A DNA stretch of 64,000 nucleotides from Dehalococcoidia bacterium. GTDB lineage: Bacteria > Chloroflexota > Dehalococcoidia > Bin125. The notes under the pieces are model-generated. The model had not been told where the DNA came from, searched no databases, and saw only the letters and a list, made by a program, of their open reading frames with translations. The position numbers and the translations under genes were made by a program. The number at the start of each line of letters is the position of its first letter. Positions within the stretch are counted from its first letter, which is position 1. This document shows, one piece after another, positions 51,161 through 56,457 of this stretch. The stretch lies in assembly GCA_034421135.1 (NCBI GenBank), contig DAOUKQ010000010.1:21659-85658 (forward strand), given 5' to 3'.

Positions 51161-51227
51161 CCGTCGCTTCCTCTCGAATCCGGCCGGTCAGGCCATGCGC
51201 AGCGCTGCTCGGCGCCGCTGGGGTCAG

Positions 51228-52367: not shown

Positions 52368-53033
52368 TTAATCGCTCACAGCCTCGAGCGCAGCCAGCAG
52401 CTCCTGGCCGACTGCATCGGGAGCCTGTTCGCCGTTGACGGTCGAGAGCTTGCCCGCCTCGCGGTAGTAGGCGACCAGCGGTTCGGTCTGGTCGGCGTAG
52501 ACCTGGAGGCGGTTGGCGATCGCTTCGGGCTTATCGTCGTCGCGTTGGATCATGTTGACGCTATCGCAGCAGGGACTGTCCTCGTCGAGTGGGTTGAAGA
52601 CCCGGTGGAAGACGCTGCCGCAGGTGGCGCAACTGATCCGACCGCCAAGCCGGCGGGTGATCTCCTCGTTCGAGACGTCGATCAGCACCGTCACGGCGAT
52701 TTCGTCGCCCTGTTCGGACAACGATTCGTCCAGCGCCCTGGCCTGTTCGACCGTGCGTGGAAAGCCGTCGAACAGGCAGCCGGCCCTGGCGTCGTCGCGG
52801 CCGATCCGCTCAAGCAACATGCGAATCGTGACGTCGTCCGGGACCAGCTCGCCCTTGTCCATGAAGGTCTTGGCCAGATTGCCCAGCTCGGTGCCGTTGC
52901 GTAGATTCTCGCGGAACATGTCGCCGGTCGAGAGATGGAGCAATCCGGTGCGCTCGGCGGTTTGCACGGCCTGGGTGCCTTTGCCGGCGCCCGGCGGTCC
53001 AAGCAGGATGACGTACATCGTCTTGTCGGTCAT
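52368..53033 (-). CDS. adk: adenylate kinase
   Basis: P-loop GPPGAGKGTQA, and a Zn-lid CxxC...CxxC (CATCG...CC). Confidence 0.9.
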   Translation of the reverse strand: MTDKTMYVILLGPPGAGKGTQAVQTAERTGLLHLSTGDMFRENLRNGTELGNLAKTFMDKGELVPDDVTIRMLLERIGRDDARAGCLFDGFPRTVEQARALDESLSEQGDEIAVTVLIDVSNEEITRRLGGRISCATCGSVFHRVFNPLDEDSPCCDSVNMIQRDDDKPEAIANRLQVYADQTEPLVAYYREAGKLSTVNGEQAPDAVGQELLAALEAVSD

Positions 53034-53035
53034 GG

Positions 53036-54784
53036 CTAGCGAATAAACCCTTCGTAATTGCGCATCAGCAGTTGCGCTTCAATCTGCCGCATCGTGTCCA
53101 GCGCGACGCCGACCACGATCAGCAACCCAGTGGAGGAGATCGTCAGCGCCGTCGAGTCGGGAATGAACTCGGTCGCCAGGAACGGCACCACGGCGACAAA
53201 GCCGAGGAACAACGCTCCCGCCCAGGTGATCCGAGCCAGTACACGGTTGATATAGTCCTGCGTTGGCCGTCCCGGTCTGATACCGGGAATGAACCCACCC
53301 TGTTTCTGCAGGTTCTCGGCCAGGTTCTGCTGCTGGAAGGTCACGAAGGTATAGAAGAAAGTGAATCCGACCACCAGCACGAAGGACAGGGCCCAGTACG
53401 CCGGACGACCGGGCGAGAGGTTGAGCTGAACCCAGTCGGCGGCGCGAATGATCCAACCGGGACGCTCGCCGAGCGTCTGACCCTCAGCGATGTCCGGTGT
53501 GAGCGGGTTATCGACGGGATCCTCGTGCGTCTTGATCTCCGAAATCGCGACGAAGTTGCCCTCGCGATCGGCGAGGCGGATCGGATCCTCGGATATCTCA
53601 TTCGCATCGATGCGCCAGGCGTACAGCGTGTCGCCACTGATCGGATCGGACGTGGTCTCCACCTGGGTCAGCACATTTGAATCGGAGTTCGAGTTGATCC
53701 GATCGAGGACGCCCTGGAAGGTGTCTTCTTCCTTGTTCCATTCAATGATGCCCTCGTTGACGACAAACTCGCCGGAGCCGTCCAGGTCGGGTAGTAACGT
53801 GGCGAGCGTCTCATCGGCGTCCTCGCGCGAGAACGGCAGCTCGACCGCGACCTGGGTCTGCGCCTCTTCGCCGGCGGCGCCGGTCACCCAACCGGCCAGC
53901 ACCGAGGGGAAGATAATGATCGAGAACGCGAAGATCAGTGGGATCATGCCGGCCGAGTTCACGCGCAGCGGAATGTAGGATTGACCGCTCTGGCGGTACA
54001 TCCTCCCTCCTCTGAACACCGATCTCGCGTACTGGACGGGAATGCGCCGCTGCGCCTCCTGGAAGAACACGATCAAGGCGACCAGCGCAATCGCAATCGC
54101 AATCACGACGGCGATGCCGGACCAGCCGATGTCGGACAGGCGGACCGAGTTGAACAGCGTGGGGAAGCTGGCCACGATGCCGGCGAAGATGATCAGCGAG
54201 ATGCCGTTGCCGACGCCCTTCTCGGTGATCAGTTCGCCCAGCCAGATCAGGAACATCGTGCCGGCGGTCATGGTCATCAAGGCCGAGATGGTCGGCAGCC
54301 ACTCCTCCGCGCCGAAGCCGATGCCGGTGATCGCGCGGGCGTTTTCGAGCAGCAGCAACTGTCCGTAGCCCTGGACCAGCGACATCGGCACGGCCAGCCA
54401 GTAGGTGTAGAGCTGAATCCGGTTGCGGCCCGACTCGCCTTCCTGCGCCAGCGCCTGGAGTCGGGGGACGACGGGCTGCATCAGGTTCATCACGATCGAC
54501 GCCGTGATGTAGGGATAGACGCCGAGCGCGACGATGGACAGGTTGTCGAGCCCGCCGCCCGAGAAGAGGTTGAGGAAGCCCAGGACCGGGTTGTTGTCCA
54601 GCGCGTTTTCGAGCTGGGTCTTGTTGATGTCGGGGATCGGTACGTGCGCGACCAGCCGGAAGACCACCAGCATGGCCAGGGTGAACGCGACTTTCTGGCG
54701 AACGTCCGGCTGCCGCCAGGCGTCGACCAGGGCCTGCAGCAGCTTAGGCCTCGTCGGACCCGTCGCTGTCTGGGCTCTCTGCAT
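53036..54784 (-). CDS. secY: preprotein translocase subunit SecY with a ~140-aa hydrophilic insertion
   Basis: Canonical SecY N-terminus (LLQALVDAWRQPDVRQKVAFTLAMLVVFRLVAHVPIPDIN) and C-terminal TMs. Total 582 aa against the usual ~440, with an acidic insert (VAVELPFSREDADE...IRAADWVQLN) within the second half of the protein. Confidence 0.85.
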   Translation of the reverse strand: MQRAQTATGPTRPKLLQALVDAWRQPDVRQKVAFTLAMLVVFRLVAHVPIPDINKTQLENALDNNPVLGFLNLFSGGGLDNLSIVALGVYPYITASIVMNLMQPVVPRLQALAQEGESGRNRIQLYTYWLAVPMSLVQGYGQLLLLENARAITGIGFGAEEWLPTISALMTMTAGTMFLIWLGELITEKGVGNGISLIIFAGIVASFPTLFNSVRLSDIGWSGIAVVIAIAIALVALIVFFQEAQRRIPVQYARSVFRGGRMYRQSGQSYIPLRVNSAGMIPLIFAFSIIIFPSVLAGWVTGAAGEEAQTQVAVELPFSREDADETLATLLPDLDGSGEFVVNEGIIEWNKEEDTFQGVLDRINSNSDSNVLTQVETTSDPISGDTLYAWRIDANEISEDPIRLADREGNFVAISEIKTHEDPVDNPLTPDIAEGQTLGERPGWIIRAADWVQLNLSPGRPAYWALSFVLVVGFTFFYTFVTFQQQNLAENLQKQGGFIPGIRPGRPTQDYINRVLARITWAGALFLGFVAVVPFLATEFIPDSTALTISSTGLLIVVGVALDTMRQIEAQLLMRNYEGFIR

Positions 54785-55235
54785 TGATCACCTCGACGCT
54801 GCCGCCTGCGGCAACGATCTTCGCTTGAGCTGCCGGAGAAATTCGTTCCACGCGCAGATGCACGGCAGCGGTGATTTCACCACCGGCGAGCACCTTGAAT
54901 CGCTGGGTCGCGCGGCGGAGCAACCCCACCGCGACGAGCGATTTCGCTTCGACCGTATCACCATCGGAGAAGCGGCGATCGATGTCGACGACATTGATCG
55001 GGTGCGCTTCCACCCGGAACGGGGCTTTGAAGCCTTTGCGCCGGGGCAGCGTGCGCATCATCGACATCGCGCCGCCCTCGAATACCGAGTTGTAGTCGCG
55101 ACCCGAGCGCGAAAGCTGACCCTTGAGGCCGCGTCCCGAGTAGGTGCCCTTGCCCGAGGCGTTGCCCCGGCCGACCCGCTTGCGCTTCTTGCGCGACCCG
55201 GGCGCGGGCTGCAGATCGTTCATCCGCAAGACCAT
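54744..55235 (-). CDS. rplO: 50S ribosomal protein L15
   Basis: L15 Gly/Lys-rich N-terminus RVGRGNASGKGTYSGRG. Confidence 0.85.
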   Translation of the reverse strand: MVLRMNDLQPAPGSRKKRKRVGRGNASGKGTYSGRGLKGQLSRSGRDYNSVFEGGAMSMMRTLPRRKGFKAPFRVEAHPINVVDIDRRFSDGDTVEAKSLVAVGLLRRATQRFKVLAGGEITAAVHLRVERISPAAQAKIVAAGGSVEVINAESPDSDGSDEA

Positions 55236-55429: not shown

Positions 55430-56035
55430 TTACTCGCTCGCTCCGGCAGCGACGGCCTCAGCCTCCGCAGCCTGGGCCTCGACTGGCGCTTGCGGCTCGG
55501 CGGGCACGCGACCGGCGAGTCGCAGCCGCTCGCGGCGGACCTGGACCGGGTCGCGCAGTTGCTCCAGCGCGCGCTGGGTTGCCTGGACGACGTTGACCAC
55601 GTTGTTCGAGCCCAACGACTTGGACAGCACGTTGCGCAGGCCGACCGCCTCCAGCACGGCGCGGACCCCGCCGCCGGCGATGACGCCGGTACCGGGCGCC
55701 GCCGGCTTGAGCAGCACCTGCGAGGCGCAAAATCGCGCCGTGATCGGGTGGGGGATTGTGCCGTTGCGAATCGGCACGCTCACCATCTCCCGGCGGGCGA
55801 TGGTCGAACCCTTGCGGATCGCATCGGGTACTTCGTTGGCCCGGCCAATGCCGATGCCGACCTGTCCATTGCCATCGCCGACGACCACCACCGAGGTGAA
55901 CGAGAATCGACGACCGCCCTTGACCACCTTGGCCACGCGGGAGACCGAGACGACCTTCTCGATGATGTCGTCCTGCGGTTCCTCGCGCTCGCGACGCCGG
56001 CCTCGCCCGCGTCCGCCTTCTCGCTGTTGCACCAT
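55430..56035 (-). CDS. rpsE: 30S ribosomal protein S5
   Basis: S5 core [20 protein letters not shown]. The start is the Met MVQQREGG at 56035; the ORF-track 308-aa frame is over-extended. Confidence 0.85.
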
Positions 56036-56073
56036 GTGTCGCTCCTGATCCTCGACTCCGGAATCCGTCGACC

Positions 56074-56457
56074 CTAGAAGACGAGTCCCGCCTTGCGCGC
56101 GGCCTCGGCCAGAGCGCGAACGCGTCCGTGATACTTGTACCCGGCTCGGTCGAAGACGACAGCGGAAATGCCGGCCTCTTGCGCCACCTGAGCCAGTTGA
56201 CGGCCCACCGCTCGCGCGCTGGCCTGCTTGCCCGAACCGTCGTCTTCGGTTGCCGCAGCAGCGCCGGAGCCGAGGTCCGAGGCGCTCGCCAACGTCACGC
56301 CGGCATCGTCGTCGATGACCTGACCGTAAATGTGCCGGGCAGATCGGAAGACGCACAGTCGCGGGCGCTGCGCGGTTCCATGCACGCGCTTGCGCACGCG
56401 CAGGTGCCGACGTTTGCGCGCGGCCCGATTAGTAAGCCGCTTTCTGCGAATCGTCAT
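56074..56457 (-). CDS. rplR: 50S ribosomal protein L18
   Basis: L18 similarity ([12 protein letters not shown]...RLCVFRS). Confidence 0.9.

Follow-up and report, generated by a model that had tools for sequence, protein, structure and literature searches.

We have examined the secY gene carried on a 64,000-nucleotide (nt) stretch of DNA from a Dehalococcoidia bacterium (contig DAOUKQ010000010.1), which we refer to here as the window, and find that it encodes a canonical SecY with a folded, selected and acidic module, akin to the head of the flagellar protein FliD, tethered to transmembrane helices 7 and 8 (TM7 and TM8) on its outer face. The original prediction for this gene had drawn attention to an acidic insertion of about 140 residues and had suggested that the loop might contact ribosomes or partner proteins; the insertion is borne out by the analysis described here, and the proposed contact with ribosomes is not. 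The best explanation of the data as a whole combines a FliD-head-like insert with a role at the exit side of the Sec channel, and we give this combination a probability of roughly 0.5. Its parts differ in strength. That the gene is the organism's housekeeping secY, into which a Flagellin_IN-type domain was inserted once in the ancestor of the clade, is very probable, and that the insert works as an exit-side accessory for emerging unfolded chains, favouring their forward release, is a tentative proposal made by analogy with other systems.

The open reading frame (ORF; 53036-54784, minus strand) starts with ATG and specifies a product of 582 residues, which is longer than the 430-445 or so that are usual for SecY and than the 443-454 of relatives lacking the insert, as had been claimed. 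It nevertheless matches the SecY equivalog model TIGR00967 over its entire length (model positions 1-414 of 414) with 350.8 bits against a cutoff of 253.6, and the Pfam SecY family (PF00344) with 329 bits in two stretches that have the insert between them. Both models for the accessory SecY2 give scores under their cutoffs (NF009082, 157.1 against 353 bits; TIGR02920, 151.5 against 249.6 bits), and the gene sits in the spc operon rather than in an accessory sec locus, which together rule out a SecY2 identity. Its position, rplO-secY-adk-map, is the canonical end of the spc operon, and the same S10-spc-alpha gene order, including the rplO-secY-adk arrangement, is seen on a contig from a relative (L080). 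The ten-helix, two-halves architecture of SecY is recognisable, with hydrophobic segments and the helices of an AlphaFold2 (AF2) model at the expected places, and the cytoplasmic loops C4 (TM6-TM7) and C5 (TM8-TM9) are intact, the motifs RRIPVQYAR...GRMYRQSG and PGIRPGRPT being invariant or nearly so. The protein is therefore predicted, from its sequence, to act as the protein-conducting channel with SecE/SecG and with SecA or the ribosome.

Alignment with the Geobacillus SecY (5EUL; chain 5eul_Y) pairs residues 21-299 of the window protein with residues 7-284 of that chain, and residues 451-582 with residues 293-424, leaving about 150 residues of the query opposite about 8 of the Geobacillus protein. 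Both ends of the protein are thus as canonical as had been stated. When aligned with its nearest insert-less relatives (443-454 residues, 61-68% identical), the extra length resolves into a single discrete block of 140 residues (303-442) between TM7 and TM8, and is not spread evenly along SecY; translation confirms its coordinates as 53459-53878. The block falls in the second half of the protein, as had been stated, and is flanked by '...SVLAGWVTG', at the end of TM7, and by 'GWIIRAADW...', in the short helix before TM8; in the insert-less relatives the corresponding TG and GW stand 5-6 residues apart. Alignment of FliD-type domains to a profile of the insert divides it into three parts, so that the gene can be laid out as follows.

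53036..54784, minus strand: secY coding sequence, 582 residues plus stop, housekeeping SecY (ORF list; TIGR00967; PDB SecY matches at E 2e-93)
53879..54784, minus strand: SecY N-terminal core, residues 1-302, with TM1-TM7, plug helix and cytoplasmic loops C2-C4 (Geobacillus SecY 7-284; hydrophobic segments; AF2 helices); 77-97% identical inside the insert clade
53459..53878, minus strand: inserted acidic extracytoplasmic domain, residues 303-442 (140 residues), in the TM7-TM8 loop
53783..53878, minus strand: N-terminal segment of the insert, residues 303-334, SecY-specific; conserved among inserts and outside most FliD-type matches
53531..53782, minus strand: Flagellin_IN / FliD-head-like core of the insert, residues 335-418; matches to FliD and to IN-repeat proteins cover profile positions about 36-118
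53459..53530, minus strand: C-terminal tether, residues 419-442, SecY-specific; conserved, with no counterpart in FliD-type domains
53036..53458, minus strand: SecY C-terminal core, residues 443-582 plus stop, with a short outer helix, TM8-TM10 and loop C5 (PGIRPGRPT) (Geobacillus SecY 293-424)

The N-terminal segment comprises a linker, the first beta-strand (residues 12-17 of the insert model) and two short helices, and has a conserved T and a VE.PF motif. The core carries the motifs G.F.VN ... RIN ... NVLT ... W.I..N ... I.L.D..GNFIA. The tether has the consensus TH..DDPLTP..VEGQT.GERP, in which a T, the E-G-Q and a G are invariant, and is of low confidence in both the insert-only and the full-length structural models. 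In the C-terminal core the AF2 helices span residues 444-455, 461-495, 508-539 and 545-573.

The insert is hydrophilic throughout, with a maximum 19-residue Kyte-Doolittle mean of 0.52 and no stretch resembling a transmembrane helix. Across residues 300-450 aspartate and glutamate make up 22.5% and lysine and arginine 6%, giving a net charge of -25, whereas the SecY core has a net charge of +8. Judged by homology to solved SecY structures, the TM7-TM8 loop is extracytoplasmic; it is presumably the same loop as loop 7 of Sec61-alpha. The loops of SecY that bind the ribosome and SecA are cytoplasmic (PMC8082313), and in the window protein the loops concerned, C4 and C5, lie on the face opposite the insert. 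Given this location, an interaction of the insert with ribosomes is unsupported, and any partner that it has must be extracytoplasmic.

When an alignment of 31 diverse insert sequences was used for AF2, the predicted insert alone reached a predicted local distance difference test (pLDDT) score of 80-94 across insert residues 11-110, with eight beta-strands and one long helix, and this secondary structure recurs in the full-length model, itself weak (pLDDT 64, with 57-61 in the tether; predicted template modelling score 0.53). The confident beta-rich prediction rules out a disordered acidic linker. Searching with the insert model in Foldseek placed FliD at the top, with a probability of 0.99-1.00 and a modest TM-score of 0.43, and the model has the beta-rich fold of the FliD D2-D3 head. 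The description of the segment as a D/E-rich hydrophilic insertion therefore stands as far as its acidity is concerned and was incomplete in overlooking a folded, beta-rich homologue of Flagellin_IN and the FliD head.

This homology surfaced only through a family-specific insert profile. In Pfam, neither the insert by itself nor 31 of its homologues matched any family, PF07196 included, and a sequence search of the PDB with the insert profile gave a single match at the level of chance (an IgA Fc receptor, E 0.22). Run with HMMER against 1.84 billion representative proteins, the same profile yielded 269 matches at E<=1e-3, 38 of them at E<=1e-10. The non-SecY matches that were checked form two groups: FliD proteins (FliD_N, Flagellin_IN and FliD_C), in which the aligned stretch comes directly before FliD_C, and giant proteins with 6-13 tandem Flagellin_IN (PF07196) repeats. 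Beyond SecY, the best single-domain scores are about 40-47 bits for FliD heads and about 35 bits for the repeats of the giant proteins. In the opposite direction, a profile made from FliD only recovers every one of the insert-bearing SecYs (92/92) and none of the insert-less ones (0/24), matching residues 311-420 of the window protein with 48.5 bits, and there is significant reciprocal profile similarity between the insert and proteins that pass the PF07196 threshold. The inserts and FliD-type domains share the pattern G.F.VN...I.Y...D.f..vl.RIN....nV.t ... I.L.D..GNFiA. The 'IN' dipeptide of the family is retained, with N364 (insert position 65) invariant and I363 (position 64) present in at least 90% of sequences, and the positions flanking it are common to the inserts and to 112 FliD-type domains. 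Since it is without the D0/D1 legs and lies outside a flagellar locus, the insert is not a FliD; it is a remote member of the Flagellin_IN / FliD-head (D2-D3) domain superfamily. Consistent with this, FliD_N and FliD_C are absent from the window SecY, where Pfam finds SecY only and the insert is flanked by TM7 and TM8.

Some of the proteins met in these searches deserve mention in their own right. The large IN-repeat proteins (P0121, P0123, P0124 and P0129-P0138), of 0.9-3.7 thousand residues, make up an uncharacterised extracellular class that shares the domain of the SecY insert; in P0121 (2452 residues) the IN repeats lie between a TadE/G-like N-terminus and a VWA domain at the C-terminus. 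The insert domain occurs nowhere else in the window, and the protein libraries contained no free-standing close relative or donor, the best non-SecY domain scoring about 47 bits. Six apparent standalone paralogues (P0127, P0125, P0142, P0126, P0128 and P0122) proved to be frameshifted or truncated SecY fragments. Public records include damaged versions of these SecYs, among them the frameshifted fragments P0125, P0127 and P0142, which could be mistaken for a standalone insert domain; P0094 has a foreign-looking N-terminus and is probably from a chimeric contig, and P0097 has a 300-residue low-complexity N-terminal fusion.

The insert is confined to one lineage, as had been supposed. Among 5.8 billion protein clusters, 92 carry it (557-590 residues), down to about 63-70% overall identity, and those with a taxonomic name are all assigned to Chloroflexi/Chloroflexota or Dehalococcoidia. 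Below that identity there is an abrupt change to SecYs of 437-454 residues without the insert. Of the species-representative genomes, 21 have the insert, at 73-96% identity and as intact single ORFs of 581-584 residues, complete chromosomes among them, and the next-best genome loci are insert-less and belong to other Dehalococcoidia and to Tepidiformaceae. One complete genome of the insert clade is OZ242034.1. The window secY is at most 87% identical at the nt level to its eight closest species representatives, and so probably comes from a further species. The names of some carriers include 'RHO3' and 'COS3', which we take as hinting at sponge hosts. The 'SB06xx_bin' series of metagenome-assembled genomes, to which some insert carriers belong, has been tabulated among sponge-associated genomes (PMC7883664). 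A neighbour-joining tree made from core positions only places all 48 insert-bearing sequences in one clade with the 15 insert-less ones outside it, a topology consistent with a single acquisition and no loss.

Within that clade the insert has been kept without exception, in all 92 clusters and all 21 species, and the region corresponding to residues 300-450 is always 146-159 residues long. Nei-Gojobori estimates from 22 coding sequences give median ratios of nonsynonymous to synonymous substitution (dN/dS) of 0.06 for the channel core and 0.28 for the insert as a whole. The parts of the insert differ, with medians of 0.29 for residues 303-334, 0.33 for the IN core (335-418) and 0.075 for the tether, which is as constrained as the channel itself. 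The ratio for the insert is 0.02-0.2 within subclades and 0.7-1.0 between them, and its identity falls from 89% to about 60% between subclades while the core still shows 94-97%. Clade-wide, the insert is 37-65% identical and the core 77-97%. The net charge of the insert has a median of -20 (range -27 to -7), with an isoelectric point of 4.05-4.72, and when expressed per 100 residues the charge is -14.3 for inserts compared with -5.0 for FliD-type domains. The acidity is thus a maintained trait, and one that goes beyond the level of the parent family. The cores of the insert clade also differ from those of insert-less SecYs at particular positions: A66P and A78G lie beside the plug helix, TM7 has V295 and G298 at its outer end, the pre-TM8 helix has R447 and W451, and the outer loop between TM9 and TM10 is longer by one residue (P542) at positions 539-544.

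What such a module might do is best considered from where it is attached. TM7/8 and TM2/3 form the lateral gate of SecY, and the plug seals the outer vestibule; on the periplasmic side, the segment that follows the signal-peptide core is lodged between TM3 and TM7, and the cleavage site lies inside the vestibule (PMC8082313). The insert is a module of about 15 kDa on the channel's outer side, attached to TM7 and TM8, which make up one jaw of the gate. It would be placed at the edge of the outer vestibule, the point at which the cleavage regions of signal peptides and unfolded mature proteins would come out. There, it could take up emerging chains, impede their backsliding and aggregation and aid their release, while the constrained, SecY-specific tether links it to the helix that precedes TM8. 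In E. coli such work falls to PpiD/YfgM, acting in trans, and in concept it is close to what the FliD head does where the flagellar export channel opens. The negative charge of the insert would hold it away from the anionic membrane surface and would also ease its own translocation, since by the positive-inside rule loops with little positive charge are the easiest to move across. Both PpiD and YidC of E. coli extend their periplasmic domains into the vestibule, and PpiD aids release and restrains backsliding (PMC8082313). In wall-less Mycoplasma the Sec translocon lies beneath a dome of PrsA-like foldases (bioRxiv 10.1101/2025.04.25.650208), and the heads of FliD are beta-rich D2-D3 domains positioned above the outlet of the flagellar channel (PMC7316729). 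The FliD protomer folds back, such that its N and C termini lie side by side (PMC7316729), which leads us to infer that the ends of the head domains are adjacent, too, and that such a domain would be easily inserted into a short loop. One might go further and imagine that the Sec channel has recruited a FliD-like head in cis, to form a permanent extracellular cap or a platform for folding above it, possibly assembling SecYEG into higher-order exit chambers by head-to-head contacts, although we regard this more ambitious version as doubtful.

Several observations weigh against our interpretation. The activity of the insert at the exit side is one that we infer by analogy, and the full-length AF2 model is of too low a confidence (pLDDT 64; tether 57-61) to orient the domain with respect to the pore. 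None of the 31 diverse inserts matched PF07196 (gathering score 22.7 bits), even at E<=1. Most of the conserved positions of the IN core are generic fold positions common to FliD, and there is no obvious substrate-binding surface. The rapid evolution of the fold core, with dN/dS moving towards 0.7-1.0 between subclades, would suit a decorative or exposed domain equally well. FliD's role in the folding of flagellin comes mainly from the whole pentameric cap and its legs rather than from isolated heads (PMC7316729). Clade-specific core substitutions fall at 10 of 90 outer-face positions compared with 5 of 136 elsewhere (p about 0.05), and those outer loops are about 2.5 times more variable in any case. 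The substitutions hint at a remodelled outer face but cannot be told apart statistically from background variability.

Other explanations need to be considered against these same data. An artefact or mobile element, whether a frameshift fusion, a misassembly, an intein or a cytoplasmic loop contacting ribosomes, has next to no probability, its unusual length (582 against about 440 residues) being all that speaks for it. The gene is a single ORF with GC content that stays flat along its whole length, and the same frame and length recur in the 92 clusters and in 21 independent species genomes, complete chromosomes included, so neither misassembly nor a frameshift can account for it; the earlier judgement that an assembly error was unlikely is borne out. 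Fusion of secY to an unrelated ORF is excluded by the hydrophobicity pattern, which resumes after the insert, and by the 132 C-terminal residues that align to SecY, and a cytoplasmic location is at odds with the solved structures. An intein or mobile insertion was also rejected: the SecY and the 31 inserts contain no Pfam matches to Hint, homing endonuclease or transposase domains, and the predicted fold is FliD-like. A more serious rival is that the IN module is a tolerated passenger in a permissive outer loop, adding nothing to translocation and kept only since its loss or unfolding would harm SecY biogenesis. In its favour, evolution of the fold core is about fivefold faster than that of the channel and is near-neutral between subclades, the gap in identity between insert and core is wide, the conserved core positions are the generic ones noted above, the clade is narrow, and IN domains, with their adjacent termini, occur as modular repeats in many extracellular proteins. 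However, a useless translocated loop of 140 residues in an essential, highly expressed protein should decay, and over core distances of up to 0.27 its loss or shortening is seen in none of the 92 clusters and in none of the 21 species. Constraint within subclades, a tether held as tightly as the channel, and an extreme acidity maintained above the level of the parent family also fit poorly with mere tolerance, and we consider a passenger somewhat unlikely.

The insert might alternatively serve in docking or oligomerisation, its FliD-like head binding other copies of SecYEG, much as FliD heads associate with one another into rings, or else a partner in the envelope, for which SecDF, YidC, signal peptidase, a foldase and an S-layer component are examples. 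In isolation, the D2-D3 heads of FliD assemble into tetramers, pentamers or hexamers through plastic interfaces (PMC7316729), the insertion site adjoins the lateral gate where YidC and PpiD touch SecY in E. coli (PMC8082313), and fast divergence between subclades would be compatible with co-evolution with a partner. Set against this, a net charge of around -20 per domain disfavours self-association without counter-ions, the window holds no second copy of the domain, and its annotated parts show no envelope or secretion genes and offer no candidate partner; this role is distinctly unlikely. There remains the idea of a gate or plug regulator, in which a domain mounted on TM7 and TM8 biases the dynamics of the lateral gate or plug, by sealing or priming the channel. 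The enlarged luminal loop 7 of eukaryotic Sec61-alpha, with bound BiP, is a precedent, in that it influences channel closure. The insertion loop is the equivalent of that loop and TM7/8 form one jaw of the gate (PMC8082313), the tether to the pre-TM8 helix is highly constrained, and the clade-specific changes include V295 and G298 at TM7's outer end, P66 and G78 in the region of the plug, and R447 and W451 in the helix preceding TM8. Yet background variability accounts for the enrichment of such signature positions, a docked state is beyond the reach of the weak full-length model, and a fast-evolving fold core is unlike a precise allosteric element, which makes this account very unlikely. The exit-side accessory remains, by a narrow margin, the reading that we prefer.

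The genes on either side of secY are as follows.

54744..55235, minus strand: rplO (ribosomal protein L15), directly upstream, overlapping the start of secY by 41 nt (TIGR01071, 135.7 bits)
52368..53033, minus strand: adk (adenylate kinase), directly downstream, followed by map, infA, rpsM, rpsK and rpsD (NF001380, 261 bits; map by TIGR00500)

L15 has an acidic C-terminal tail, and an overlap identical to the 41 nt at the rplO/secY junction (54744-54784) is annotated in the relative's contig (L080 6001-6041), a hint of translational coupling. The gene for ribosomal protein L36, rpmJ, is missing from its usual slot between infA and rpsM, where the gap is just 67 nt (51161-51227) in the window and 62 nt (9537-9598) in L080, and a tblastn search of the whole window with two L36 sequences gave no convincing match. 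Ribosomal protein S5, encoded by rpsE at about 55430-56050 within an ORF at 55430-56356 on the minus strand, is apparently lengthened to about 200-207 residues (207 in L080), with an Arg/Gly-rich tail at its N-terminus and an Ala/Glu-rich one at its C-terminus, and the local GC content climbs to 0.69-0.73. As sampled, positions 1-34000 of the window encode the metabolism of an ordinary heterotroph. Among the products are an enoyl-CoA hydratase, an acyl-CoA dehydrogenase, a carboxylesterase, an amidohydrolase, an SMP-30-like lactonase, a DPD-like Fe-S flavoprotein and two radical-SAM proteins, one of them with DUF3463, as well as an ABC permease, a binding protein of the NMT1/THI5-like kind, a PPC-domain protein and a protein combining transglutaminase-like and TPR domains. 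In the annotated parts of the window no secretion, flagellar or envelope genes were seen.

In a limited literature search covering insertions in Chloroflexi SecY, SecY with a FliD or IN motif, and the SecY of sponge symbionts, we found no earlier description of this protein, and public records that bear a name call it 'preprotein translocase subunit SecY' and nothing else. It is a genuine SecY whose domain architecture is novel. This matters since SecY/Sec61 proteins are among the most conserved membrane proteins, with outer loops that are normally minimal, and help at the exit side has been thought to come from separate proteins only, such as PpiD/YfgM, SecDF, YidC and PrsA-like foldases. An insert placed between helices of the lateral gate amounts to a natural experiment on what the channel outlet can carry, and its kinship with the FliD head connects two otherwise separate export systems. 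In practical terms, SecY with and without the 140 residues would be a compact and genetically tractable construct for questions of release, backsliding and gating, and the insert is a sharp molecular synapomorphy for an uncultured, partly sponge-associated group of Dehalococcoidia. Should the doubtful proposal of a cap prove true, this would be the first SecY/Sec61 known to have its own folded domain at the exit side, a natural analogue, in one polypeptide, of PpiD/YfgM and of the Mycoplasma foldase dome, and an exchange of modules between the flagellar and Sec systems.

Comparison with better-known systems helps to define what is and is not shared. We know of no bacterial SecY with a large extracytoplasmic domain; domains of this kind are found instead in SecD/SecF, in the YidC of Gram-negative bacteria and in PpiD/YfgM, which act in trans. 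The SecYs of Geobacillus (5EUL), E. coli and Thermus have the same ten-helix core, plug region, loops C4 and C5 and rplO-adk position as the window protein, but their TM7-TM8 outer loop, like that of the nearest Dehalococcoidia and Tepidiformaceae, is about 8-20 residues long where the window SecY has a folded domain of 140. Luminal loop 7 of Sec61-alpha is likewise larger than the bacterial loop and is implicated in gating and in the binding of BiP; it consists, however, of a few tens of residues with small helices and is not homologous to the 140-residue beta domain described here. The closest relatives of the insert in fold are the cap heads of FliD (HAP2; 6SIH, 5H5V/W, 5H5T, 5FHY, 6IWY and 6KTY), with about 9-18% identity to the solved proteins, and the differences are considerable. 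The insert is without FliD_N and FliD_C (the D0/D1 legs), belongs to a membrane protein encoded in a ribosomal-protein operon rather than in a flagellar cluster, has one IN core where most FliD proteins give two matches, is about three times more acidic, and carries N-terminal and tether segments that are specific to SecY. The giant extracellular proteins of PF07196 belong to the same domain family by profile search and share the central 'IN' with the insert, but are secreted repeat arrays, whereas the SecY insert is a loop insertion. The likeness to PpiD/YfgM of E. coli, the P1 domain of YidC and the PrsA-like dome of Mycoplasma pneumoniae is one of position, in that these too are soluble-type domains at the outer gate or vestibule of SecY, as is proposed for the insert (PMC8082313; bioRxiv 10.1101/2025.04.25.650208). 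They are, however, separate proteins with peptidyl-prolyl isomerase/chaperone or beta-sandwich folds, whereas the insert is an integral part of the SecY chain, is unrelated to them in fold and would share their role by analogy.

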